From: an uncultured Acidimicrobiia bacterium
Lineage (GTDB): Bacteria; Actinomycetota; Acidimicrobiia; Spongiisociales; UBA5794
Assembly (NCBI GenBank): GCA_963714375.1
Contig: CAVQOG010000006.1
Span: 287,603 to 351,602 of the forward strand
DNA: 64,000 nt
Direction: 5' to 3'
Within the stretch, counting starts at the first letter, position 1. Each line of letters starts with the position of its first letter. This document shows positions 2,509 to 44,068 of this stretch, piece by piece. The position numbers and the translations under genes were made by a program. The notes under the pieces were generated by a model, which saw only the letters and a list, made by a program, of their open reading frames with translations, ran no database searches and was not told where the DNA came from.

Positions 2509-5500
2509 TCACCTTCCGATGGCGTTCCGTCCGTGCTCCTGTTCCCTTGTCAGGAGGCGGAGATGACGCTGGACTGCACGCTGGGTGACGATCCATGCGG
2601 CACGCTCGATGACATCGCTGCTGGGCGGTCGCGGTCCGAGGAGGTCGGTAGCATCGTCGGGTATGTCGTGTTCGGTGCGGAATCGGATTGCCCGGTCGAC
2701 GGCAGCGTCCCATGCCCCCTGGCGTTCGTGGTCGCTGGGCCGTTCACCGAGGCTGTTGGTGACCCAATCCGGTGGCTGGAAGGCGATAGTTGCGAGCTGG
2801 TCGCGGTGCCGGTCGCGGATCTCGAGTTCAAGTTTCACGTATTCGACGATCGGTTCGTTTGGAACGTCGTTCGTCTCCGTCAATCGTTCCCCTGCGCCTA
2901 GGGCGGCGAGGCTGTCTTTGACTTCGGTGAGTCGTTGTTTGAGTTGTTCGTCGGTGAGGGTGTTGGGTCCGCGTCCTGTGTCGTGGGCGGCGGGTTCAGC
3001 GGCGGTGCGGGCAAGGGCGGCGATGAGTGCCGGGAGGCGGTCGGGGTGCTCGTGGGCGAGGTGTTCGCATTCTTCCTGGCTCATATCGGGATTGGTGAGG
3101 TAGATCGTGTTGGCTTCGCGACCTCGGCTCATGGTGACGTAAATCCATTCACGGTCGACTCCGTCGCTCGCGACGGTGTGGGCACGTCGTGCTGTGGCTC
3201 CTTGGGCTTTGTGGCCGGTGAGGGCGTATCCCCAGTCGAGGTGACCGTCGTCGAGGTACCAATGCGGCACGTTCGCTGATCGACCGTCGCGGTCCAAACG
3301 GATGGTGACCGTTCGGCGTTCGGTGTCGATTCCGGTGATCGTGGCGAGATCACCGTTGAGGACGCCAAGTCGATCCCGGTTCTTGAGGCACACAACACGG
3401 TCACCGGTCTGGAAGTCGCGGCCCTGAGCCTTCAGAGTGGGTCCCTTGAGCAGTCCGGCTTCGGCAACCAAGGTACGGGCTCGTTGATTGAGTTCATCAA
3501 CGGTGGTGTTGCGGTGACCGATGAGCAGCACCTGGGCAGGATCACCGACCTCTTGGACGTCGCGGTACCAAGCGTCGACTGCCTGGCCGATGGTGTCATC
3601 GTCGGTGGGTGCGACGCTGATTTTGCCGCGTCGGTTGTACATAGCAACCGCCCGCGACACTGAGCCTTCACGTAGTTCGGTGAGTGCGGTTCGTTCCCAC
3701 CCTTGGCCCTGTCGGACATTCTCAGTCAACTCGACGACCGGGAGACGGGCCGTCAGCGCGGCGAAGAGACCACCGGCGTCTATCTCGGCGAGCTGGCGGT
3801 GGTCACCGATCAGGATGAGCTTGCCCGATGCAGCCTCGACGAGGTCGGAGACTTGGGCGAGTTGACGGGTCCCGACCATCCCGGATTCATCAACAACAAC
3901 GATGGCGCCAGCGGGGAGCCCACCGGCTGCCTTGGTCTCCCACAGAAACCGCGTGATCGTCGTGGACGAGATACCGGTGGAGGTTTCGAACCCCGCAGCC
4001 GCCCGAGCAGCGAGAGCCGCACCCACGACGGGCGTGCCGGTCTGTGAGGCGAGGTCGCCGATAATGGACATGACGGTGGTCTTGCCAGTACCTGCGGCTC
4101 CCACCCCCACGTCGATGGCGTTGCCCGATGTGGCGAAGCGGCGGACCATCGCCCGTTGCCCATCGGTCAGACTCAAGTCGGCGTCGAGGGCCGCGTCGAC
4201 TTGCGAATCCGGTACGGCCCAGCGGTCGGCCTCGATCCCGGCGATGGCACGGTTGATGATCCGCTGCTCGATCGTGAGGAGTTCGGTGGTGGTGTAGCGG
4301 CGTTCATTGACAAGTCCCGGGAAGGTCACTCCATTCTTCCGACGCAGAATCCTGGGCCTGGCCGAATCGACGAGCTCGAGAAGGCGTTCGAGTTCAATCG
4401 GGTCAAACTCGATGGGCGGATCTACGCCAGCATCAACGGCCGTATGGCTAGGCAAGATGGCGACCACATCTGAACGGTGCAGGAATGTATCGGCGAGGGC
4501 TTCGACCTCAGCCCGTCGTCCGCCCTCGGGAAGAGCCTCTGCCGCTGCCATGATCACATCTGGGCGCCCGAACGTCGATGCTTGGGCAGTCAGTCCCTCG
4601 GCGGATGCCAACCGGTCAAACACGGGCTCAGGATCAGGGATCGTGACCTCTTGGCGCCGCCCAAGCAACAATGCCACTGATTCGGGTGTCACTCCCACTT
4701 CGGAGCCCCGTTCCATCCAATGCGGGATGAGCGTGTCGAGTGGGTGGTCTCGTTTGGGGCTGCGGGTCGCAAGGGTTGCGATCTCGTTCACACCAGGAGT
4801 ATCGGGAAGGTTCCGAGCGTCACGCCAGGATTCAATCTGTTGGCGTCGCTGGGAGAACGCCACGATCTGGTCCCGGGTGAACCCCTCGATGTCAGCCATA
4901 CCTTTTTGGACTGGTTGCCAGCGGACCCCGAGGCGTTCCGTGAGACGGCTCCGCAGCTCAGCTTCGTGGAGATAGCCAGCTGCGAGCTTGTGCCGATACA
5001 ACAGACGCCCGTCAACAGCACGCCACACCCCATCGACACCTTCCACCCTGTTTCCGACCACAACATGGGTATGGAGCTGTGGGTCGTCGGCACGGCTCGT
5101 GAACTCGGTGAAACACGCAGACACGTACCCGTTGGCACGGATCGGCCACGTCTCCACCCGCTGACGAGGAAGACCGTCCTCGTCGAGGATCGGCTTGCCC
5201 TCGTCGTCCAAGACCGGTGTCCGGGACGCTCCCCGGGTAGAAGATGCCACCGACTCCAGATAGGTCAAAGCCTCGGTGGTGGACTCCCCAAACGCTTCAA
5301 CCACGTGACGTCGGACCTCGTCGTCGCCAAATGCCCAGAGAAGCGATACCGATTTGTCAGCAGAAAAGGTCAGATCCCACGCAGCCACCCCATCCTTTCG
5401 AATCCGACGCCCCAGCTGCTCCCCCGTCGCTGGATGTTGTCCGTCGAAGAGCCGAACCAGACCCTCACCCGACACAGTGCCCGCCAGGCCCAGTTCGGTG

Positions 5501-5622
5501 GCGCCGCTGCCATGCCAGCGACCCTTCGCCGTCCCGCCCCGCAAGTAATAGTCCTCACGAGGCGAGATCTCCCCGAGCTTTTCGAGGTAGTAGTCCTTGT
5601 GGGCCTTGGCGATACTCAACAT
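2509..5622 (-). CDS. MobF-family conjugative relaxase (TrwC domain) fused to a RecD-like/AAA_30 helicase (TraA-like)
   Basis: N-terminal TrwC relaxase region (MLSIAKAHKDYYLEKLGEI...DLTFSADKSVSLLWAFG...HTHVVVGN). Central Walker A GAAGTGKTT and UvrD_C-like C-terminal region. The ORF-track start at 5706 is probably upstream extension; MLSIAK at 5622 fits the family N-terminus. Confidence 0.88.
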   Translation of the reverse strand: MLSIAKAHKDYYLEKLGEISPREDYYLRGGTAKGRWHGSGATELGLAGTVSGEGLVRLFDGQHPATGEQLGRRIRKDGVAAWDLTFSADKSVSLLWAFGDDEVRRHVVEAFGESTTEALTYLESVASSTRGASRTPVLDDEGKPILDEDGLPRQRVETWPIRANGYVSACFTEFTSRADDPQLHTHVVVGNRVEGVDGVWRAVDGRLLYRHKLAAGYLHEAELRSRLTERLGVRWQPVQKGMADIEGFTRDQIVAFSQRRQQIESWRDARNLPDTPGVNEIATLATRSPKRDHPLDTLIPHWMERGSEVGVTPESVALLLGRRQEVTIPDPEPVFDRLASAEGLTAQASTFGRPDVIMAAAEALPEGGRRAEVEALADTFLHRSDVVAILPSHTAVDAGVDPPIEFDPIELERLLELVDSARPRILRRKNGVTFPGLVNERRYTTTELLTIEQRIINRAIAGIEADRWAVPDSQVDAALDADLSLTDGQRAMVRRFATSGNAIDVGVGAAGTGKTTVMSIIGDLASQTGTPVVGAALAARAAAGFETSTGISSTTITRFLWETKAAGGLPAGAIVVVDESGMVGTRQLAQVSDLVEAASGKLILIGDHRQLAEIDAGGLFAALTARLPVVELTENVRQGQGWERTALTELREGSVSRAVAMYNRRGKISVAPTDDDTIGQAVDAWYRDVQEVGDPAQVLLIGHRNTTVDELNQRARTLVAEAGLLKGPTLKAQGRDFQTGDRVVCLKNRDRLGVLNGDLATITGIDTERRTVTIRLDRDGRSANVPHWYLDDGHLDWGYALTGHKAQGATARRAHTVASDGVDREWIYVTMSRGREANTIYLTNPDMSQEECEHLAHEHPDRLPALIAALARTAAEPAAHDTGRGPNTLTDEQLKQRLTEVKDSLAALGAGERLTETNDVPNEPIVEYVKLELEIRDRHRDQLATIAFQPPDWVTNSLGERPSDHERQGAWDAAVDRAIRFRTEHDIPDDATDLLGPRPPSSDVIERAAWIVTQRAVQRHLRLLTREQEHGRNAIGR

Positions 5623-5830
5623 CTCGCCGCCCCCACGATGTCTACATGTATACATCCCGCAACTTGTTGCACATGCGTGTGGTGAAGAGGACGGTTTGAT
5701 TGGCAACGGCTGACAGGGTGCCGCGACGCGATGTTGATGGCTACTTGTCGGTACCTGTTGGTTGTCATCGGGTTCTTCTCCTCGATCTGGCTCATTGGGC
5801 TGATCGTGGAGGAGGACCCTGTCACCAGAA

Positions 5831-7571: not shown

Positions 7572-7643
7572 TGGGCGATACTGGATTTGAACCAGTGACC
7601 CCTGCCGTGTCGAGGCAGTGCTCTGCCGCTGAGCTAATCGCCC
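7572..7643 (-). tRNA. tRNA-Val (anticodon GAC)
   Basis: Reverse complement GGGCGATTAGCTCAGCGGCAGAGCACTGCCTCGACACGGCAGGGGTCACTGGTTCAAATCCAGTATCGCCCA folds as a 72-nt cloverleaf. Acceptor GGGCGAT/ATCGCCC, T-arm ACTGG-TTCAAAT-CCAGT, anticodon stem CTGCC/GGCAG, loop TCGACAC. Confidence 0.8.
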
Positions 7644-7689
7644 TTTCGGGATTCGGAAGATAGCGGCGGGTTCAGGGAAAGCGCAACGC

Positions 7690-8763
7690 TCAGGCGGCAA
7701 GGGCTTTCTTGGCGCTATCACGTCTCCACAGCAGCAGGGTGATGACACCGATGATGACCTGGGGGAAGTACGTGAAGGCCCTCCATACCAGCGTTGCGGC
7801 GAGCGCGTCGTTCTGTGACATCCCGAATCCCGCGAGCATGCTGGTGATGATGGCATCCGTTGTACCGAGCCCACCGGGTGGGATCGGAATGAACGTCGCC
7901 AAGCGCCCGAGCGCAAAGGCAGCGAACGCCTCGGCGAGCGTGATGGGACCGTCGAAGCCGCCCTGAAGCGCCACCACGGCGAGATAGAGGATCGAGAACT
8001 GAGCGAGTTGCTGTGCAACATTGGCCGCCGTGATGAGAATCCAGCGGTCTGCCACGACGTCGATGATCGAAATCCTGAAGTCAACGAGTGCCTCGGCAGC
8101 ATCGAACGAGACTTCCTTGTGGATCAACCCGGCACCCCAGCCGATGACCGCGTTGCCCCATCCGCCGATCTTTCGAGCCAGGTTCTCGCTCCGCAGGATG
8201 AGGGCAAGCCCACCGACCATCAGCACAACCAGGATCGCGGCGACCACGGTGAGGAGCACATCGTCTGCACCGGTCTGTCCGGTGATCGTGAGCCCGATGA
8301 TCGCCAAGAGGGGCAGAGACAGGGTGACAAGCGTGTTCCATACGCTTGTGATGCCGATGACCGCCGTTGTCGGCGCCGGACCGTATCCGTAGCTCGACAG
8401 CATTCCGTACTGGACCGCAAGCCCCCACGCCCCGCCACCGGGGATGACATTGGAGATCATGAACGATGTTTGGCGCGTGTAGAACCCGTGCTTGAAGCGA
8501 AGCTGTGGCATCGCAGCCGTGTACGGAAAGACGTAGAGGATGATCAGACCAACCGTGGCCGCCGTGATGAGCCCGAGTTGCCACGCCGTCATGCCCTGGA
8601 TCGCTGTCCACGCTGCTGCGTAGTCGCCGAACTGGGGCAGCACCACCACGAAAACAATGACGAGAACAATGAGCGTCAGAATCGTTGCGATGATCTGCTG
8701 CTTGCCAAACTTGGGTTTGGGTGGCTGGAGCGGATCGGGTGTCTGTTGAACGTCGTCGGCCAT
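7690..8763 (-). CDS. lysylphosphatidylglycerol-synthase transmembrane-domain (UPF0104/flippase-like) membrane protein
   Basis: Multi-pass hydrophobic protein with a conserved GxxxRLAT..PIPPGGLGTTD-like segment typical of the MprF TM/flippase-like family. The ORF track extends it to 8910, which would run through tRNA-Cys. The start is placed at MADDVQ (8763). Confidence 0.55.
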   Translation of the reverse strand: MADDVQQTPDPLQPPKPKFGKQQIIATILTLIVLVIVFVVVLPQFGDYAAAWTAIQGMTAWQLGLITAATVGLIILYVFPYTAAMPQLRFKHGFYTRQTSFMISNVIPGGGAWGLAVQYGMLSSYGYGPAPTTAVIGITSVWNTLVTLSLPLLAIIGLTITGQTGADDVLLTVVAAILVVLMVGGLALILRSENLARKIGGWGNAVIGWGAGLIHKEVSFDAAEALVDFRISIIDVVADRWILITAANVAQQLAQFSILYLAVVALQGGFDGPITLAEAFAAFALGRLATFIPIPPGGLGTTDAIITSMLAGFGMSQNDALAATLVWRAFTYFPQVIIGVITLLLWRRDSAKKALAA

Positions 8764-8842
8764 TGTGTGCCTTTGTGCGATACGGACCAAGAAACTCTCG
8801 GGTAGTGGGACTCTAGGCGTTTGGAAGCACCGAATACGGGTT

Positions 8843-8916
8843 TGGAGGCGACGGCGGGATTCGAACCCGCGTACAGGGTTTTGCAGACCCTTGCCTAGCC
8901 ACTCGGCCACGTCGCC
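8843..8916 (-). tRNA. tRNA-Cys (anticodon GCA)
   Basis: Reverse complement GGCGACGTGGCCGAGTGGCTAGGCAAGGGTCTGCAAAACCCTGTACGCGGGTTCGAATCCCGCCGTCGCCTCCA. Anticodon loop CTGCAAA; CCA is encoded. Confidence 0.9.
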
Positions 8917-8956
8917 GAATAAGAAAAGCGGCCACAGCGGACCGCCCTCCTCTCGG

Positions 8957-9030
8957 AGCGGACGACCGGGATCGAACCGGCGACCTCAACCTTGGCAAGG
9001 TTGCGCTCTACCAGCTGAGCTACGTCCGCG
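8957..9030 (-). tRNA. tRNA-Gly (anticodon GCC)
   Basis: Reverse complement GCGGACGTAGCTCAGCTGGTAGAGCGCAACCTTGCCAAGGTTGAGGTCGCCGGTTCGATCCCGGTCGTCCGCT. Anticodon loop TTGCCAA. Confidence 0.9.
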
Positions 9031-36207: not shown

Positions 36208-37451
36208 TGGACAAACTCCTCAAGATCATCGGCGGAAAAGGGTCCGACGGCGCCAAGCACGTAGGGACCCTGGTATGCCGCCTTGACGGCCTCGAGCACT
36301 TCGTCCTGAGTCACGTTCGAGATCACTTCTACCGTTTCGTCGACGGTGAGATGCTCCATGCCGGTCAGCTCGGTTTGACCGATGCGATTCATGCGGCTGA
36401 GAGCATCCTCGAGTCCGAGAGCAAGGGCGCCCTTCACATAGCCCTTGGCTCGGTTGAGTTCCTCATCGGTCAATCCATCATTCATCAGTCTGGCGATCTC
36501 CGTGCGGACAAGACCGAGAACCTCAGCGGTCTGACTCGGAGCAGTGCCGACGTAGACGGCGCTCGCACCGGCGTCTGCGAACGGCATCCGAAAACTGTGA
36601 ACGGAATAGGCCAGGCCACGGGTCTCGCGAATCTCATGGAACAAGCGCGAGTTCATACCACCACCAAGAACGTGGTCAGCAAGCATCAGGGCGTAGCGGC
36701 GCTCATCGTCGCGTGCAAAAGACTCGCTTCCGAAAACGAGGTGGGCCTGCTCGGTGTCCTTGGTTCTGACCTGCACCCGCGACGAAACCACCGGCTTGGT
36801 CAGCACGTGGTCGGTTTGGAGACCGGACCACTCTCCGAACCGTGCCGCAACCTGATCAATGACGTCGTCAGGGAGGTTCCCTGCGATCGATATCACTGTC
36901 GAATAAGGCGTATAGCGACGAGACCAATACGCATCGATCGTTTCGCGGGACATGTCCGTGATGGACTCCTTCGTCCCGAGGATCGGTGGCGACAGCGGGT
37001 GGTTGGACCACAACGCCTCGACGAACTGTTCATGGGCGACATCGGTCGGGTCATCCTCGTTCATGTTGATCTCTTCAAGAACGACGTGACGTTCGCTGTC
37101 GATTTCAGCCTGACGGAATGCGGGGCGCTGGATCATCTCCGAGAGAATCTCAAGACCGAGCGGGAAATCCTCGTCTCGCAGACGCGTCCAAAAACACGTG
37201 TACTCCTTCGACGTAAACGCATTGTGCCGCGCACCAACTCCGTCGAACGCTCCGGAGATGTCCCTGGCAGACCATGACTCCGATCCTTTGAACAACAGAT
37301 GCTCCAGAAAGTGTGACGCACCCGCTTCGGGACCAGCCTCGTCTCGGCTCCCCGTGGCAACCCAGCACCCGATCGCGACTGATCGAGTCGACGGCATGTG
37401 GTGCGTGATGATTCTGAGCCCGTTGGGGAGAGTTGTTAGTTGGTGTTCCAT
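36204..37451 (-). CDS. M16-family zinc peptidase (pitrilysin/PepR-like)
   Basis: Inverted zinc motif HFLEHLLFKG near the N-terminus; 415 aa. Confidence 0.85.
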   Translation of the reverse strand: MEHQLTTLPNGLRIITHHMPSTRSVAIGCWVATGSRDEAGPEAGASHFLEHLLFKGSESWSARDISGAFDGVGARHNAFTSKEYTCFWTRLRDEDFPLGLEILSEMIQRPAFRQAEIDSERHVVLEEINMNEDDPTDVAHEQFVEALWSNHPLSPPILGTKESITDMSRETIDAYWSRRYTPYSTVISIAGNLPDDVIDQVAARFGEWSGLQTDHVLTKPVVSSRVQVRTKDTEQAHLVFGSESFARDDERRYALMLADHVLGGGMNSRLFHEIRETRGLAYSVHSFRMPFADAGASAVYVGTAPSQTAEVLGLVRTEIARLMNDGLTDEELNRAKGYVKGALALGLEDALSRMNRIGQTELTGMEHLTVDETVEVISNVTQDEVLEAVKAAYQGPYVLGAVGPFSADDLEEFVQ

Positions 37452-37515
37452 CGTTGCTCGATGATAGGAACCCCTTGGTTGACCGAAACTCGATGGACGG
37501 TTTCAGCGTCGCCGA

Positions 37516-37908
37516 CTACTCAAGCGGACCGGGGGGCTTTCTGAGGAGCTTCGTTCGCGATCGCATTCTCTTGTCTTCGATCCGTTTCTTCCGCGCGGAT
37601 CGCGACGGCTTCGTAAATCGCCTCGGAGGTGGGTCTGGCTTGGCTGCACCGTCGAGCACCGCTTCGAGACGACGGCGTGCCCTTTTCCGATTCGTCGCCT
37701 GGGACCGCGATCGGTCCTCCACGATCCGGATCTCGGAACCAACCTTGTTCACGATGCGGGCTCGTGACCGCTCATCGATCGCTGTTGACGTCTCGACATC
37801 GAACCGCAGCTCAACACGTGTTGAAGACCTGTTTGCATGCTGGCCGCCGGGTCCTCCCGTGGGTGAGAATCGCCATTGGAGTTCCCGATCAGGAATGTCG
37901 AACGACAG
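37516..37908 (-). CDS. arfB: alternative ribosome-rescue factor ArfB (peptidyl-tRNA hydrolase domain, GGQ motif)
   Basis: Minus-strand frame reads ...LSFDIPDRELQWRFSPTGGPGGQHANRSSTRVELRFDVETS...RSRSQATNRKRARRRLEAV... with a basic C-terminal tail. The ORF track reports only the C-terminal 78 aa from a GTG at 37752. The full frame is open back to a stop at 37927-37929 but contains no ATG, GTG or TTG, so the start is probably CTG (37906-37908) or ATT (37894-37896). Confidence 0.6.
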   Translation of the reverse strand: MSFDIPDRELQWRFSPTGGPGGQHANRSSTRVELRFDVETSTAIDERSRARIVNKVGSEIRIVEDRSRSQATNRKRARRRLEAVLDGAAKPDPPPRRFTKPSRSARKKRIEDKRMRSRTKLLRKPPGPLE

Positions 37909-37953
37909 GGTGCCCTCCGTGAGACTTCAACGGCATCGTACACTTGGCGGTTG

Positions 37954-40185
37954 ATGCGCGAACGAGACGAATCCGTACTTCACGAGATCCTTCCCCCGGA
38001 GGAACGGGCGATTGAAGCCGTCGTCGCTCGCTATCAGCGGGTCGCGCCAGCGGTAACCCGATTTGCCAGGTCGCTTGCTGGCAACGAGGAACTCCAGGTG
38101 CGCCTCGGCACGCAAGCCGCCTCCACGCCCGAAACGATCGTTATCGACCCTCGATCATTTCAGACTGCATATGCACGCTCGGCACCCGTCACACCGGCCG
38201 AGGTTGCACTGACATCCGCACTCCACGAAGTCATCCATCTCATAGCCACCGACCTCGACGAGGAACGTCCGATTCCCAAGGAGTGGCTCGCGTTTGCCAC
38301 AACCGTCGAGGAAGACCCTGACCTTGAACACGAGGGACCGATGGTTCCCGTCGGCCTGTTCCAGCTCGGAGAGATGGATGACGACCTCATTCGGCCGGAC
38401 CTCGAGGAAGACGACATCGACTTCGGCGACGGAGAGGCGACGGACGCACGCGCTGTCTCGGTTCTCGACGCACTCCACACCATCGGTGGACCAGCTGCCG
38501 AAGCACTCTTCTTTGCCATCGAAGATGCCAGACAAGAACGCATCCATTTCGATGCGTATCCGGGTGCCGGATCAGTCCTCAAGGACCTCTACCGCACATC
38601 GGTTGGCCACGCCATGGGGAATGCAAGGCCACTTGGTCAGTTTGCGCTCGCATGCTTCATGATCGTTGGGGGGCATGAGGAGCGAGACCTCATGCAGAAG
38701 CGTCTACCGGCAAATGTCGCGGTAGCGATCGACGACGCCATGGGATTCTTGGATCCCGTATTCGATGTCGATGACGCATGGTCGATCGGAACGATCGCTC
38801 TTCAGCTGCTGTCAGTCGCCAAACTGCACAACCTCGTGCAGGAAGGCGCGGCCACTTCGAGCCAGAAACAACTCCAGGACGAGGTTGACGGGGCGGCCAT
38901 ATCCGAGACCGTTGACGCGGTTCGGATGGTGACACCGTCCCTCGCTGATCGCGAGTCCTACGACCAGACGCGACAAGCTGCTCAAGCCGTCAGCGCTCAG
39001 GACGGAGTCAAGGGCGAAGCTGATCAGGCTGGCGATCCCGCTACCGACCAGATCATGAAAGTCTCGACTGCCCCGACAATCTTCCTCCCCTCGGGTCAGG
39101 GCGGCAAGCTCCTTGTTACCGATCTTCCCTCCGGGTTTGCTGCGTTCGCACCGCAGGGCCGCGAGATGCTTGAGAAAGCGAGCGCCGACTGGGGTGTGGC
39201 CCAGCATCGGGTGTCTGGTGAGCTGTATCCGCTGTTCCTCGCAAACCAGCGGCGTGGCTTGCGCTCTGGGTTCGACGCGGGTGACCTCTCTCCCTACACC
39301 CCGCTCCTGCTTGGTGCTGGTCTCTATGAACGCATGTTCGAACGTCGCGACCTTCCGTCTCGACGCTCGTATGCGGTGAGCCTGCTCGTCGACGGATCGG
39401 CATCAATGCTCCAGCCTCGAGAGACCGGAGGGAGAAAGGCACCGTGGGCGATGGCTGCCGCACTGCTTGGTGCGTGGACACTTGCCAAGCTTGCAGATGA
39501 GCTCCAACTCGATTTTGAGGTTGCAATCTTCAATCGTTCGTTTGCAGCCAAACGCGACGACACCGAGTTCACGTACCGCGACATCCGTTCGAAAGCGACC
39601 GCAGGGCTTCGCCAATCCCAGGGCGGCAATGCCGAACGGCTCACGCGAACCGTCAACCATTATCTCGTCAAGGGATTCAACGATCGGTGGCGAAAGAGTG
39701 AGGACGTCCTCGCCGGTCTCTTCTTCACCGCCGCCGCTCCTCAGGAGGCGGCACGAGAGGCTCGGAAGGATCCGAAAACCGCCCCGCCAGTGTCCATGTT
39801 CGACAAAGCGGCAAACGTGGACGAATTCAACGTGGCACACGCCGCAGAACGACTTGCCGGCCAACACGCGTCGCACCGAATCATGGTGGTGCTCGCAGAC
39901 GGCATGACCAGAGGCTCCGTTCAAGCCCTCGCTGAAACCGTTGCTGATGTCGAACGCGGCGGTGCGACCGTCCTTGGAATCGGTATCGGCGATGACACCG
40001 TTCGAGCGGCTTATTCGCGAGCACAAGTCGTTGAGCAACCGCTGCAACTCGCTGCAGCGATGGTCGAAGGTGTGCGTTCAACGCTGTACAAGTCAATTGC
40101 CGCATCGGGAGTCGATTCCTGGTGGGCGCACGAGGGGGAACGAGTTCTTATGGATCACATGGCAACAGGAGCAATCAATGGCTAA
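37954..40185 (+). CDS. large HExxH-motif / von Willebrand factor A (VWA) domain protein
   Basis: C-terminal VWA with MIDAS motif (SLLVDGSASM ... VVLADGMT). N-terminal region carries LHEVIHL (HExxH), resembling the putative-metallopeptidase + VWA architecture of MoxR partner proteins. Start placed at MRERDES to avoid overlapping arfB. Confidence 0.65.
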   Translation: MRERDESVLHEILPPEERAIEAVVARYQRVAPAVTRFARSLAGNEELQVRLGTQAASTPETIVIDPRSFQTAYARSAPVTPAEVALTSALHEVIHLIATDLDEERPIPKEWLAFATTVEEDPDLEHEGPMVPVGLFQLGEMDDDLIRPDLEEDDIDFGDGEATDARAVSVLDALHTIGGPAAEALFFAIEDARQERIHFDAYPGAGSVLKDLYRTSVGHAMGNARPLGQFALACFMIVGGHEERDLMQKRLPANVAVAIDDAMGFLDPVFDVDDAWSIGTIALQLLSVAKLHNLVQEGAATSSQKQLQDEVDGAAISETVDAVRMVTPSLADRESYDQTRQAAQAVSAQDGVKGEADQAGDPATDQIMKVSTAPTIFLPSGQGGKLLVTDLPSGFAAFAPQGREMLEKASADWGVAQHRVSGELYPLFLANQRRGLRSGFDAGDLSPYTPLLLGAGLYERMFERRDLPSRRSYAVSLLVDGSASMLQPRETGGRKAPWAMAAALLGAWTLAKLADELQLDFEVAIFNRSFAAKRDDTEFTYRDIRSKATAGLRQSQGGNAERLTRTVNHYLVKGFNDRWRKSEDVLAGLFFTAAAPQEAAREARKDPKTAPPVSMFDKAANVDEFNVAHAAERLAGQHASHRIMVVLADGMTRGSVQALAETVADVERGGATVLGIGIGDDTVRAAYSRAQVVEQPLQLAAAMVEGVRSTLYKSIAASGVDSWWAHEGERVLMDHMATGAING

Positions 40186-41170
40186 GACCGTCACATTCAC
40201 CGACCCAACCGGCGCTGGAGCCGATGTTGAACTGCCGATCACCGAGGTCTCAAAGGATCTCGATGACTATGCGTCGCGGATGGATCACATTCCGACCGTG
40301 GACGGGTTCTACATCGACCTCGGCATGCAATACCAGCTTGCGCGGCTCGAACAGATTCGGCGTTCGCACTTCACGGACAGCCCACTCCACCTTGCACTGC
40401 GAGGTCACATGGGAACGGGAAAGGACCACGACCTCGAGCAGTTTGCTGCGATGCTCAAGACTCCGTACTACCGGATCCCCCTGACGGGCGAGGTTCGCGA
40501 CATCACGTTGATAGGTTCTGTGAAGCTCCACGGTGACGGAAAGGGCGGGACGGAGAGCCGCTGGCAGGATGGCGACATGACCCGTGCGTTGCGAGGACCA
40601 GCGCTTGTCAACCTGTCTGAGCTGAACGCTGCCGGAGCTGAGACCCTCTTCGCTCTCCATGGCCTCCTCGACCGTCACAGAGCGCTGGAGTTGCCGACCG
40701 GTGAGATGGTGCGACTGCGTGACGATGTTCGCATCTTCGGCACACTCAACCCAACCGACCTGCGCGACTACGCAGGCACACAGACCCTCAACAAGGCCTT
40801 CGCCGATCGCTGGATCATCTGGGAGAAACTGTTCCCTGGCGAGGATGATCTCGTCCTGATGATCGAACGTCGCCATCCGGACATGACCCCCAAGGTGCGG
40901 GAACTACTCACGAAGCTTGCTGTTGAAATCAACACATCGTTCTCGGCCGGCGACTCACGTACGCGAGTTGAGACACCAATGTCGCTCCGTACCGTCCTCG
41001 ATCGCTACCCAGCCGGGTTGCGGATGTATGCAGACCGCGAGGATCCGATGCGTTGGGCATGGCAGGAGTTCATCCTCCCTCACATCGATCAGTACGACCG
41101 CGATCACTATGAGACCGTGTGGTCAGCCGTCGTCAGGAAGGGCCCCGCCGGCGACCCCTTCGGCGGATAG
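40178..41170 (+). CDS. AAA_5/MoxR-like ATPase with non-canonical Walker motifs
   Basis: GHMGTGKD (Walker A with Asp where Ser/Thr is expected). ALVNLSELNAA in the Walker B / LDEINRA position. VRIFGTLNPTD sensor-1 region. The ATG overlaps the upstream gene's stop by 8 nt (ATGGCTAA). Confidence 0.7.
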   Translation: MAKTVTFTDPTGAGADVELPITEVSKDLDDYASRMDHIPTVDGFYIDLGMQYQLARLEQIRRSHFTDSPLHLALRGHMGTGKDHDLEQFAAMLKTPYYRIPLTGEVRDITLIGSVKLHGDGKGGTESRWQDGDMTRALRGPALVNLSELNAAGAETLFALHGLLDRHRALELPTGEMVRLRDDVRIFGTLNPTDLRDYAGTQTLNKAFADRWIIWEKLFPGEDDLVLMIERRHPDMTPKVRELLTKLAVEINTSFSAGDSRTRVETPMSLRTVLDRYPAGLRMYADREDPMRWAWQEFILPHIDQYDRDHYETVWSAVVRKGPAGDPFGG

Positions 41171-41201
41171 ACATCGCCACCCGAGGACCAGCTGACGAGG
41201 A

Positions 41202-42317
41202 TCATGGCTCGTGTTGCGTCTTGCGCGTCAGTCGTCGTCGGTGTGGTGGTGAATCGTGGTCGATGTGGTAGCCGTTGGTGTGTATGGCGATGTGGTGGTG
41301 GTACCAGCACAGTGTGGTGAGGTTGTCAGGTTCATGGCTGCCATCGTGGGACCATGGGATGATGTGGTGGGGTTCGAGGCGGTATTTGCTTTGGCATCCG
41401 TCGATGGTGCAGCCACTGTCACGGAACAGGACACTGTCACGGATCGCTTTCGGGATGGCGCGTGCGGAACGTGAGGTCACGACTGGCTTGCCTCGTGTGT
41501 CGAGACCGATCACACGAACCGTGCCCCCACACAGCAGCGCTTCGAGGGTTTCGGGTCCGACCCGTGGGCCGCTGGGAATTTCGGCCGTGTAGCCACCAGC
41601 CATGTTGACCGTATCAGTGCGTGCATCGACAAACACGGTCACTTGGCCAGACATTGCGCTGTCGACCCCTGTGGTATCACCACTGAGGGAGTCCTGCATC
41701 AATGCCACCAACGCATCGGCTTGGCGTTGACCTCGTGAGGATTGTTCTGCACCCACAAGAAGTCGGAGTTCGTCAGCTTTTTGGGCAATGGCCTTGTCGA
41801 CAATGCGTCCCATCAATCCTGGTAGCCGTCCATGGATCGTCCATGCGCCTTCGTCAAGGGACGGCTGGATCGTGAAATGACGATCAGCGTGTTCTTTGCG
41901 TTCATCGCCTGCTGTCATGTGTCGGCGACGGACCCGCATCTTGCGCAGATCCTCCAAATTGAGTCCCCCGGTTTCGAGTGCTTCAGCTTCGGTGGCACCG
42001 GCCTCAACAAAGCGGTGCATCTCAACAACCCGATCAAACGTCGCACCCCCATATCCCAACCGGCGTTGGATCCCACGACACTTGACACCGTTGCGAGCCG
42101 CTGTCACCAAACCAGCTGCAGTCGTCTTTGAAACATCAAGATGCGACTGAACCCACTCGCCAAGAGTGCGTGACGCGTCACTGCGATGAGCGTTGATCTT
42201 GGCCAACTCGTTGACGATCGTCACCTGCTCAGCACGACGCTCAGAAATCTCAGCCTCAAGAACAACCAGACGCTTTCCAAGCTCTGAAACTGAAAACGGT
42301 GCAAACAAACTTCCCAT
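41202..42317 (-). CDS. DUF222 + HNH endonuclease protein (REP13E12-type repetitive/mobile gene family of actinobacteria)
   Basis: C-terminal HNH signature CTIDGC...EPHHIIPWSHDGSHEPDNLTTLCWYHHHIAIH and a DUF222-like N-terminal region. Confidence 0.8.
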   Translation of the reverse strand: MGSLFAPFSVSELGKRLVVLEAEISERRAEQVTIVNELAKINAHRSDASRTLGEWVQSHLDVSKTTAAGLVTAARNGVKCRGIQRRLGYGGATFDRVVEMHRFVEAGATEAEALETGGLNLEDLRKMRVRRRHMTAGDERKEHADRHFTIQPSLDEGAWTIHGRLPGLMGRIVDKAIAQKADELRLLVGAEQSSRGQRQADALVALMQDSLSGDTTGVDSAMSGQVTVFVDARTDTVNMAGGYTAEIPSGPRVGPETLEALLCGGTVRVIGLDTRGKPVVTSRSARAIPKAIRDSVLFRDSGCTIDGCQSKYRLEPHHIIPWSHDGSHEPDNLTTLCWYHHHIAIHTNGYHIDHDSPPHRRRLTRKTQHEP

Positions 42318-42386
42318 ACCAACAACGTACCAGCGGCGTATGACAGATCCTCAGAGATCAGACGTCAGAAGTCAGAAGCGGGCTGC

Positions 42387-42872
42387 TCAGTCGCGGAAGT
42401 TGATGTATTGGAGCGGGAGTCGGAAGTCGAGCCCTTTCACTGCAGCAATCACGTCTTGGAGGTCATCGCGTTTCTTGCCCGAGATTCGCAACTGATCGCC
42501 TTGGATCGCAACCTGGACCTTGAGTTTCTCGTCCTTGATGAACTTGGTGAGTTCCTTGGCCGCGTCCTGGGCGATTCCTTGGTTGAGGTCGAACGCGGCC
42601 TGGTATCGGCCACCAGCGATCTCCTTTGGCTCTCCCCCACCGATCGACTTGAGACTCACGTTTCGTTTCACCAGCTTGGTCTTGAGGACGTCGACGGCGG
42701 CCGCCAGGCGACCATCTGAGTCGGACTCGACCACGATCCCGTCGTCGGTGAGCTTCACGGTTGAGGACGTCCCTTTGAAGTCGTAGCGGTTCACGATTTC
42801 ACGGGAAGCCTGGTCAACGGCGTTGCGGACTTCCTGTATGTCTACCTGGGAAACGATGTCGAATGAGGGCAT
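42387..42872 (-). CDS. yajQ: YajQ-family cyclic-di-GMP/nucleotide-binding protein (UPF0234)
   Basis: MPSFDIVSQVDIQEVRNAVDQ N-terminus and 161-aa length are diagnostic. Confidence 0.85.
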   Translation of the reverse strand: MPSFDIVSQVDIQEVRNAVDQASREIVNRYDFKGTSSTVKLTDDGIVVESDSDGRLAAAVDVLKTKLVKRNVSLKSIGGGEPKEIAGGRYQAAFDLNQGIAQDAAKELTKFIKDEKLKVQVAIQGDQLRISGKKRDDLQDVIAAVKGLDFRLPLQYINFRD

Positions 42873-43018
42873 GTCTCCAGCCTAACGACCGAAGGCGCAT
42901 CTCACATCGAGCGAGTCACCCCAATGGACGACCACAACTCCCGACATATCGGTACTACCGAGGCTGCAGCGTTGCCTCGGTGGTGACAACGGACGCACAA
43001 GGCAACTACCTTGGTGTC

Positions 43019-44068
43019 ATGACAGACAAACCAACCCCCCTGTCTCTCGACGCCCAGATTGCCGAACTCATCAGTCGCGTCGTTCCGGTCGGGTCGAATG
43101 GAACAAGGGACCAAGACCTTGTCCACGAGATCATCAATACAGCGCTCAAACTCGTGAAGGACAACACGGACCGGGGCGACGTGAAGATCATGAATACCGC
43201 CCTGAAGGAGTTGCGATACTCATTCCTGGTATTCGACCCCTACCGCGACTACCCGAAGGTCGCTGTGTATGGATCAGCAAGAACCGATCCCTCGGAGGCG
43301 AACTACAAGCTCGCCGAGGAGTTCGGACGGCGAATGGCACAGGACCACAACTGGATGGTGATCACCGGAGCCGGTCCGGGGATCATGGAGGCAGCCAACA
43401 AGGGAGCTGGCTCCGAAGCAAGTTTCGGGGTCAACATCAGGCTGCCCTTCGAGGCAGGGGCAAACGAATATCTCTCGCCGGGGAAAGTCATCAACTTCAA
43501 GTATTTCTTCACCCGAAAAGTACAGTTCGTCAAGGAGTCCAACGCCTTCGCCCTCTTCCCCGGAGGATTCGGAACCATGGACGAAACGTTCGAACTTCTC
43601 ACGTTGATCCAAACGGGGAAGTCCGACATGCATCCGATCGTGATGCTCGACGCTGACGGAACCGGCTACTGGGACGCATGGGTATCGATGTGTCACGTAC
43701 TCGAACAACAGGGAATGATCTCCCCCCATGATGCAAACCTCTACAAGGTGGCCGCCAACCTGGACGAAGCTATCGACGAAATAGTCAGCTTTTTCCGGGT
43801 CTACCACTCACAGCGGTATGTGAATGGAAAGTTGGTTCTGCGACTCAATTCTGAGATCCCTGATGACCTGGTCGCGACGTTGTCGTCTGAATACGCTGAC
43901 ATCATCCCGAGCGGCGCGATCACCAAGGTGCCAACGAGCCAGGCGGAGATCGATACGGACGATGTTGTCAATCTCCCACGTATCTCGTTCGATTACGACC
44001 GCCGAAGTTTTGGTCGCCTTCGTGCCCTCATCGACGACCTGAATGCTGCAGGATCCGACACGTCCTGA
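43019..44068 (+). CDS. LOG-family protein (TIGR00730; PpnN-like nucleotide 5'-monophosphate nucleosidase)
   Basis: Central LOG motifs (VYGSART..., ITGAGPGIMEAANKGA, PGGFGTMDE) with N- and C-terminal extension domains as in PpnN. Start placed at MTDKPT (43019). Confidence 0.78.
   Translation: MTDKPTPLSLDAQIAELISRVVPVGSNGTRDQDLVHEIINTALKLVKDNTDRGDVKIMNTALKELRYSFLVFDPYRDYPKVAVYGSARTDPSEANYKLAEEFGRRMAQDHNWMVITGAGPGIMEAANKGAGSEASFGVNIRLPFEAGANEYLSPGKVINFKYFFTRKVQFVKESNAFALFPGGFGTMDETFELLTLIQTGKSDMHPIVMLDADGTGYWDAWVSMCHVLEQQGMISPHDANLYKVAANLDEAIDEIVSFFRVYHSQRYVNGKLVLRLNSEIPDDLVATLSSEYADIIPSGAITKVPTSQAEIDTDDVVNLPRISFDYDRRSFGRLRALIDDLNAAGSDTS

Follow-up and report, generated by a model that had tools for sequence, protein, structure and literature searches.

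An overlapping VWA-ATPase gene pair

The DNA analyzed here is a stretch of 64,000 nucleotides from an uncultured Acidimicrobiia bacterium (assembly GCA_963714375.1, contig CAVQOG010000006.1, positions 287,603 to 351,602), to which we refer as the window. Two adjacent genes on its plus strand are the subject of this study. The first, at 37954..40185, encodes a CobT-like VWA protein of 743 residues counted from its ATG; the second, at 40178..41170, encodes a 330-residue CobS-like AAA+ ATPase of the AAA_5/MoxR class. Judged from their sequences, the two form a divergent CobT-like/CobS-like module that combines VWA and MoxR-class AAA+ domains. Current annotation calls the VWA protein "hypothetical" and the ATPase an "AAA family ATPase" or "midasin." The ATG of the ATPase gene at 40178 runs into the TAA of the VWA gene (40183-40185), and the resulting 8-nucleotide overlap at 40178..40185 can be read directly from the plus strand as ATGGCTAA. 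An AGGAG ribosome-binding site for the ATPase (40167..40171, plus strand) lies within the 3′ end of the VWA gene, 6 nucleotides upstream of the ATG. We found 184 relatives in a species-level genome collection and read synteny in the best 80 loci; the two genes abut or overlap in most of 79 related loci, by an approximate estimate. A longer VWA gene starting from a TTG at 37876 was excluded, because all homologues begin at the Met-Arg of the ATG, and this M1-R2 start is invariant among them. Likewise, a plus-strand open reading frame (ORF) at 37433-37954 (173 residues), which ends at the VWA start, is an antisense shadow of the ArfB-like gene described below. A scan of 37300-42950 found no promoter-like sites, and the only terminator-like site in the same interval, fewer than expected by chance, is on the opposite strand within the VWA gene.

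The VWA protein is laid out as a putative M48-like N-domain, a linker, a shaft-like segment, and a C-terminal VWA domain with a MIDAS (metal ion-dependent adhesion site); all its motifs are given here with plus-strand coordinates. The HExxH motif of the N-domain is HEVIH (residues 91-95; 38224..38238), in which H91, E92, and H95 are invariant. An acidic insertion follows (residues ~110-170; 38281..38463); it is poorly conserved in the conservation profile, and AlphaFold2 (AF2) models it with a predicted local distance difference test score (pLDDT) of ~33. Beyond it stands an invariant EDARQE motif (residues 190-195; 38521..38538), followed by YPGAG, which is a candidate for the third metal ligand of the M48-like domain. 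The pre-VWA segment (residues 361-472; 39034..39369) is highly conserved and is a candidate "shaft" or "finger"; residues 420-475 are nearly invariant in the conservation profile. The DxSxS motif of the MIDAS is DGSAS (D480, S482, and S484 in residues 480-484; 39391..39405), and alignment to CobT_C and phage CobT assigns the two remaining residues to N621 (39814-39816) and D649 (39898-39900). All of these are invariant, and the D-S-S-N-D set is complete. HEVIH and DGSAS do not vary in a 37-sequence alignment and are at least 98% conserved among 194 sequences. An earlier note on this DNA, made from the sequence alone, had described a 744-residue protein with an HExxH signature and a C-terminal VWA/MIDAS domain, whose stop overlaps the start of the ATPase; the length is one residue too long, and both motifs and the overlap are where that note put them.

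Several searches connect the VWA protein to CobT. Pfam CobT_C matches it just above threshold (22.8 bits against a cutoff of 21). PF13203 and PF09967, which the earlier note had expected, do not match at an E value of ≤1, while its expectation of AAA_5 for the ATPase was correct. Matches in PHROGs are phrog_5298 (N terminus, CobT), phrog_17276 (C terminus, CobT), and phrog_1576. hhalign pairs residues 425-708 with CobT from Roseobacter phage CRP-810 at a probability of 96%, and the profile match to the CobT_C crystal structure 21vt has an E value of 0.014. By BLASTP, the EDARQE region matches phage CobT (ALEDIWLERR..YPGA) with an E value of 0.01. The HExxH...ED.R.E signature is common to the VWA protein and four comparator CobT-like proteins, including phage CobT and those of loci L083, L116, and L117. 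In the comparators, ED.R.E (often followed by YPG) comes 36-56 residues after HExxH, and DxSxS comes ~300-410 residues further on. The corresponding distance from HExxH to EDARQE in the window VWA protein is 99 residues, because the poorly conserved acidic stretch is inserted there. The Pfam CobT N-domain (PF06213) does not match the VWA protein, and a search of the phage CobT N-domain against the PDB returned no match. The AF2 model of the VWA protein is poor, with a mean pLDDT of 54.6 and an N-domain of low confidence. In Foldseek searches with this model, the VWA part best matches the VWA domain of NorD and the MIDAS domains of MDN1, and the N-domain has no structural match.

For the ATPase, Pfam AAA_5 matches with 51.1 bits against a cutoff of 22 (E value of 1.9e-13), over profile positions 1-138 of 139. 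The NCBIfam CobS equivalog (TIGR01650) gives a weak but collinear match, with 49.4 bits against a cutoff of 558.55 and residues 30-231 aligned on 32-234. The phage "CobS/porphyrin biosynthesis" family, phrog_249, matches with an E value of 4.5e-25. Sequence matches in the PDB are midasin (E value of ~4e-28), CobS 9ujv (6.6e-13), NorQ, and CbbQ; the midasin score is inflated because it is summed over repeated AAA domains. The AF2 model of the ATPase has a pLDDT of 71.7, with NorQ and CbbQ as the closest structures; where the pre-sensor-1 hairpin is expected it has two strands, 169-171 and 177-179. The lid (residues 221-330), searched separately against the PDB, gave no meaningful match. An alignment with outgroup ATPases places sensor 1 at Asn191 (40748-40750), the Arg finger at Arg211 (40808-40810), and sensor 2 at Arg271 (40988-40990), all on the plus strand.

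The Asp/Ser exchange in the Walker motifs

The ATPase's Walker A motif and Walker B motif depart from the canonical patterns GxxxxGK[S/T] and hhhhDE. Walker A reads GHMGTGKD (residues 76-83; 40403..40426, plus strand), with Asp83 (40424-40426) in place of the Mg-binding Ser/Thr at K+1. Walker B reads LVNLSE (residues 143-148; 40604..40621, plus strand): Ser147 replaces the Asp, Glu148 is kept, and Asn145 stands in place of a hydrophobic residue. HMMER, aligning the ATPase with several of midasin's AAA domains, matches GHMGTGKD to GxxGxGKT and LVNLSE to hhhhDE, and a MAFFT alignment with the 21 nearest non-family ATPases gives the same register. For instance, the nearest outgroup ATPase, P0276, has GHTGTGKT and IVILDELNAA where the window ATPase has GHMGTGKD and ALVNLSELNAA. 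P0276 comes from a 1.6-kb contig, and the protein was not found among viral contigs. The ATPase has no alternative Walker B; a canonical one elsewhere in the protein was what the earlier note had said would speak against its reading.

The exchange is fixed within the family. All 182 aligned family sequences have the Asp in Walker A and the Ser in Walker B, NLSELN does not vary in the same alignment, and GHMGTGKD is present in 119 of 120 close homologues. In contrast, K+1 is Thr or Ser in every one of the 21 nearest outgroup ATPases, and their Walker B has Asp-Glu, or Glu-Glu in one subclade. The exchange is thus derived, since these nearest outgroups are canonical. The Glu-Glu subclade (P0381 and P0393-P0396, motif LLLEE[LM]N) belongs with the rare Glu-for-Asp exceptions that are already in the literature. 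Of 518 Walker-A-like motifs from midasin-type homologues, not one has Asp at K+1. Other changes specific to the family also fall in the nucleotide site: Met78 replaces Thr in the P-loop, Asn145 replaces Ile or another hydrophobic residue, and His84-Asp85 follow Asp83. A Lys-Asp-His-Asp cluster accompanies the exchange. Despite an overall identity of 17-28%, Lys82, Glu148, Asn191, Arg211, and Arg271 are the same in the family and in the outgroups.

The ATPase is also under strong constraint. It is the most conserved gene of its neighborhood in 66 of 72 loci, with a median identity across related loci of 78%, compared with 73% for YajQ, 70% for dapA, 66% for both the M16 peptidase and the VWA protein, and 59% for dapB. 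This is unlike the conservation pattern of a decaying site in a dispensable protein. On the evidence of the alignments, the Asp/Ser exchange is real, reciprocal, derived, and fixed, and it is not decay. The earlier note had proposed a reciprocal exchange in place of random decay, and the 182 invariant sequences, the canonical outgroups, and the retention of the other nucleotide-site residues bear this out. We found no prior report of such an exchange of Walker motif residues in the searchable literature, which is absence of evidence only. Searches on "GKD" Walker A motifs in AAA+ proteins, on MoxR/VWA pairs in Acidimicrobiia, and on deviant or degenerate Walker motifs in MoxR/CobS returned nothing relevant.

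The two exchanged positions belong to one functional unit. In P-loop nucleoside triphosphatases (NTPases), the K+1 hydroxyl and the Walker B Asp form a short hydrogen-bonded pair, and the hydroxyl is a direct Mg2+ ligand (PMC9599734). Among residues able to carry a proton, only two have been described as strictly conserved in every P-loop NTPase, the Ser/Thr of Walker A and the Asp of Walker B, and together they are described as a hydrogen-bonded catalytic module; the exceptions given in the main text of that work are a Gly at K+1 in nucleoside monophosphate kinases and a Glu at Walker B (PMC9599734). The exchange seen here retains one carboxylate and one hydroxyl, with an equal summed side-chain length from the P-loop to strand β3. 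Either single step would leave two carboxylates or none. Since charge and length are kept and the single steps are unbalanced, the exchange appears to be a compensated double change. We infer that the hydrogen-bonded Asp/Ser pair is kept in inverted form, with Asp83 placed directly on the metal, and that nucleotide handling is retained. The ATPase probably has an altered hydrolysis rate or metal preference; by contacting the metal directly, the carboxylate might slow hydrolysis or shift the preferred metal. A specific geometry can be proposed only tentatively: the P-loop carboxylate would bind the metal directly, the hydroxyl would sit on β3, and together with His84/Asp85 and Asn145 this arrangement could alter metal preference or the gating of hydrolysis.

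The family keeps its other catalytic residues and is under stronger constraint than dapA and dapB, yet two residues of the Mg site have been exchanged reciprocally. Such an active-site variant is rare for a nearly universal site and would surprise specialists. It poses the question of whether geometry and charge suffice for the Walker A/B module to work or whether a hydroxyl on the P-loop is required. If the pair is indeed inverted, it would be a natural experiment on the proton-relay role that has been proposed for these two residues.

Related systems and a motor-adaptor model

A 2026 cryo-EM preprint on CobSTN (bioRxiv 10.64898/2026.07.21.739949) provides a detailed comparison. In that complex, the N-domain of CobT resembles an M48C peptidase and binds the lid of CobS, and a disordered linker of ~90 residues comes after it; the CobT "shaft" enters the CobS ring, and the helix-2 inserts of CobS encircle it. 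The same preprint gives the CobT MIDAS as D422/S424/S426/N518/D546 and places the motifs of Brucella melitensis CobS (328 residues) at 71-78 for Walker A, D141-E142 for Walker B, N186, R210, and R271. The 330-residue window ATPase has them at nearly the same positions (Walker A 76-83, 147-148, N191, R211, and R271). Its partner resembles CobT in its D-S-S-N-D MIDAS, in a shaft region ahead of the VWA domain, and in a disordered linker that follows a putative M48-like N-domain; in both systems the two genes are adjacent. Conservation in the VWA protein is highest at the position of the CobT shaft, 9-49 residues ahead of the MIDAS Asp, and by this position the pre-VWA segment is a candidate to enter the pore of the ATPase. 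There are also differences. The window ATPase has Asp for Ser in Walker A and Ser for Asp in Walker B and is only remotely similar to CobS; the adaptor is ~100 residues longer than CobT and carries an extra acidic insertion inside its N-domain; and the pair is adaptor-first, without CobN or a vitamin B12 context in the window.

These likenesses could mean that the pair is a genuine aerobic cobaltochelatase CobS/CobT, serving a CobN encoded elsewhere in the genome. CobS and CobT are the best named matches, and size and motif spacing are as in CobS. Nevertheless, we consider this reading very improbable. The CobS equivalog reaches 49 bits where 558.55 are called for, there is no match to the CobT equivalog or to the Pfam CobT N-domain, and the ATPase is only 23-33% identical to annotated phage CobS. 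The window has no cob genes or CobN, and the neighborhood of the pair consists of dap, ArfB, and YajQ genes. Furthermore, 1091 plasmid records carry CobT-like VWA proteins, mostly without a chelatase annotation in those listed. Klebsiella (348), Escherichia (229), and Acinetobacter (147) contribute the most records; among the listed ones (hits H26-H37), several are ~110 kb, and the proteins are labeled "CobT," "porphyrin biosynthesis protein," or "VWA domain-containing protein." They are a large uncharacterized family outside any B12 context.

The nearest sequence relatives of the window pair are CobS/CobT-like pairs of phages, plasmids, and cells (phrog_249 with phrog_1576/5298; CRP-810 gp06-gp07; the metagenomic loci L083, L116, and L117). 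Their ATPases are 17-28% identical to the window ATPase overall and up to 43% locally, their adaptors carry the same HExxH...ED.R.E...DxSxS signature, and their genes are tightly adjacent. They differ from the window pair in having GKT/GKS with DE (or EE) and an ATPase-first order, and some lie on phage-like contigs, whereas the Acidimicrobiia family forms an isolated, syntenic cluster on the chromosome. The order is ATPase-first in all four comparator pairs and VWA-first in all 80 Acidimicrobiia loci, as one would expect from the earlier note's remark that the usual arrangement is reversed here. One of the canonical pairs, L116 (metagenome, JGI 3300013125), stands in a cellular context: upstream of it, on the opposite strand, are DUF362/ferredoxin-like genes and a ParA-like gene, and the gene directly downstream encodes a radical SAM protein. 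These neighbors could hint at a metallocofactor-related client for the wider family.

Two other systems resemble the pair. NorQ-NorD and CbbQ-CbbO are the best structural matches of both window models; in these complexes, a VWA finger sits in the AAA+ pore, and the MIDAS engages the client for metal insertion or remodeling (PMC13036017, PMC9976466). In NorQD, the ATPase activity of NorQ remodels a linker in NorD. They differ from the window pair in belonging to another subfamily, in having a partner without an M48-like HExxH domain, in their canonical Walker motifs and ATPase-first order, and in having known clients (cNOR and Rubisco). Midasin/Rea1 is the top-scoring sequence match of the ATPase, has a MIDAS that resembles the window VWA domain, and has an acidic linker, but it occurs in eukaryotes only, with six AAA domains fused in one giant polypeptide.

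The reading that we favor, with a probability of roughly 60%, is a motor-adaptor complex of the CobST/NorQD type that acts on a client and has a rewired but working nucleotide-Mg site. By analogy with these systems, the ATPase would form a hexamer, and the loops of its helix-2 insert would grip the pre-VWA "shaft" of the adaptor (residues ~420-472). Movements driven by nucleotide would pass through the linker of the adaptor to the MIDAS and M48-like domains, which would then remodel, metallate, or perhaps cleave a putative client. The combination of a MoxR-class AAA+ protein with a VWA partner of the CobS/CobT lineage is already known. Three features of this pair are new: the inverted Asp/Ser pair, the reversed and overlapping gene order, and the fixed core-genome status in an uncultured actinobacterial lineage.

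Five observations weigh against this motor-adaptor reading. In other P-loop NTPases, single replacement of either the K+1 Ser/Thr or the Walker B Asp abolishes activity (PMC9599734). The ATPase core, residues 65-215, is almost wholly invariant within the family, and conservation of catalytic residues within the family is therefore uninformative; the outgroup comparison is the informative one. The AF2 model has a pLDDT below 50 at the P-loop, the helix-2 insert (103-127), and the sensor 1/Arg-finger region. The 64-kb window holds no CobN-like or cob genes. Finally, the M48-like fold of the N-domain is proposed from shared sequence motifs and the published description of CobT, not from a structural match.

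The first three of these points bear on the main alternative, a pseudo-ATPase scaffold. The exchange would then kill Mg-ATP binding or hydrolysis, the protein would be a static or nucleotide-locked ring for the VWA/M48-like protein, and strong conservation would reflect protein-protein interfaces. Since single replacements inactivate many P-loop NTPases, an inactive site is a serious alternative, and with the whole core invariant, within-family retention of the catalytic residues proves little. AF2 is unsure at the P-loop, and the related rings of midasin and dynein often contain degenerate AAA sites, with sporadic non-Ser/Thr sites among midasin-type homologues. However, such degenerate midasin-type sites carry R, L, E, Q, G, H, I, or K, and never an Asp with Ser-Glu. 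A reciprocal exchange that conserves charge and length is unlike random decay, the glycines of the P-loop are intact, and Lys82, Glu148, Asn191, Arg211, and Arg271 are kept at 17-28% identity to canonical outgroups. We therefore regard the scaffold as somewhat unlikely, although it is the strongest competitor of a working ATPase.

A further possibility is compatible with the motor-adaptor complex and concerns the other end of the adaptor. The HExxH/EDARQE site of the N-domain might cleave substrates that the AAA+ ring positions or unfolds, which would make the pair an ATP-regulated metalloprotease. The HExxH and the downstream Glu/Asp motif are invariant and common to the wider CobT-like family, and the N-domain of CobT resembles M48C peptidases. 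On the other hand, the published description of CobST gives the M48-like domain no role beyond that of an interaction module, which binds CobN and the lid of CobS, and the model of the N-domain in the window protein is of low confidence. Proteolysis is doubtful in our view.

Chromosomal setting and neighboring genes

In a word-index search, the ATPase has 1597 relatives and the VWA protein 1113; the best 120 of each set, described here, are mostly from Acidimicrobiia metagenome-assembled genomes and are 76-100% and 75-95% identical to the window proteins, respectively. Lengths are constant in the family, at 736-743 residues for the VWA protein and 330 for the ATPase. A library of 1.84 billion representatives at 50% identity holds one full-length cluster of the ATPase (P0241, 70% identity) plus fragments. 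The next matches in it are eukaryotic midasins, with scores summed over repeats, and a few single-domain proteins that are ~40% identical locally. With a single cluster and only remote matches beyond it, the ATPase family is a tight, isolated clade. No member was found on viral contigs. A degenerate DNA pattern for GTGKDHD has 29 matches in IMG/VR, none in a Walker A context, against a rough chance estimate of ~28.

The VWA-to-ATPase order is found in all 80 related loci, in the same housekeeping neighborhood. The pair lies between a dapA-thioredoxin-dapB-M16 peptidase block and YajQ, LOG-like, and MDMPI-like genes, and the window itself, with FtsK, RNase J, dapA, dapB, and DnaE, is core chromosome of an ordinary actinobacterial kind. 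The pair is vertically inherited at a conserved core-genome position and is lineage specific to uncultured Acidimicrobiia. CobS/CobT-like modules are widespread on phages and plasmids without a link to B12; this one is a core-genome component of a whole lineage. Its fixed status in Acidimicrobiia argues for a housekeeping client.

The same observations bear on the suggestion of the earlier note that the pair might be a nucleoside triphosphate-dependent signaling or conflict system, associated with the mobile HNH endonuclease gene next to it. Pairs of a MoxR-class ATPase and a vWA protein are the core of vWA-MoxR ternary conflict systems (Kaur et al. 2020, PMC7159879), the closest canonical relatives of the window pair include phage-borne ones, and a DUF222-HNH gene does adjoin the ATPase. 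This suggestion did not survive, and a defense role is now highly unlikely. The pair occupies the same chromosomal position among housekeeping genes in 80 of 80 genomes, and length and architecture are fixed (736-743 and 330 residues). The ATPase is the slowest-evolving gene locally, which is the opposite of how conflict systems behave. We found no VMAP, iSTAND, FtsH, or beta-propeller protein and no effector domain among the neighbors of the pair or in the conserved block, the VWA domain ends the VWA protein with no effector domain C-terminal to it, and neither protein matches any family of PADLOC-DB 2.0 at an E value of ≤0.01. With no third component, no variable effectors, no mobility, and no diversification, the pair lacks every defining feature of these systems.

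The DUF222-HNH endonuclease gene itself (41202..42317, minus strand) occupies a site between the ATPase and YajQ that is variable. Its adjacency is as the earlier note described, but a link to the pair is not supported: the gene is missing from that position in all 80 related loci, one of which (L001) has an unrelated 290 bp there. Homology to the closest relative ends at the ATPase stop and restarts at YajQ. The insertion of this HNH gene is peculiar to this genome. Distant HNH copies (38-40% identity) occur elsewhere in four loci. The gene has a weak NCBIfam match to IscB (33 bits against a cutoff of 175), which covers the HNH motif only.

Two neighbors are leads, and only leads, to the client of the motor-adaptor complex. 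One is YajQ/DUF520, a member of a nucleotide-binding protein family (42387..42872, minus strand). In most related loci (L002-L080) it lies 12-52 bp 3′ of the ATPase on the same strand, which suggests a VWA-ATPase-YajQ operon, and YajQ is a possible partner or client of the pair. In the window and ~8 other loci YajQ is inverted, and here the HNH insertion parts it from the ATPase. The other is the divergent neighbor, an ArfB-like GGQ peptidyl-tRNA hydrolase gene (37516..37908, minus strand) with a GGPGGQ motif and a basic tail (Pfam RF-1, E value of 2e-4), situated in the seemingly intergenic 500 bp ahead of the VWA gene. It lies less than 300 bp upstream of the VWA start, in divergent orientation, in 48 of 56 loci. 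In the window it has no ATG, GTG, or TTG ahead of the GGQ; a CTG (37908-37906) takes the place of the ATG with which "MRFDIP" begins in relatives, and 6 codons further upstream there is an in-frame TGA. With no usual start codon before the GGQ, the gene has a noncanonical start or is impaired in this genome.

Beyond YajQ, a LOG-like (Lysine_decarbox/SLOG) ORF of 401 residues (42863-44068, plus strand) overlaps the 5′ end of YajQ by 10 nucleotides. Pfam matches cover only its residues 132-306, and relatives align with shorter spans; the true start of the gene is probably downstream of the listed one. At the beginning of the window, a TrwC-type relaxase with a RecD-like helicase (1065 residues) is found at 2509-5706 and 7572-9029, both on the minus strand, beside three tRNA genes. 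This region is probably an integrated conjugative or mobilizable element.

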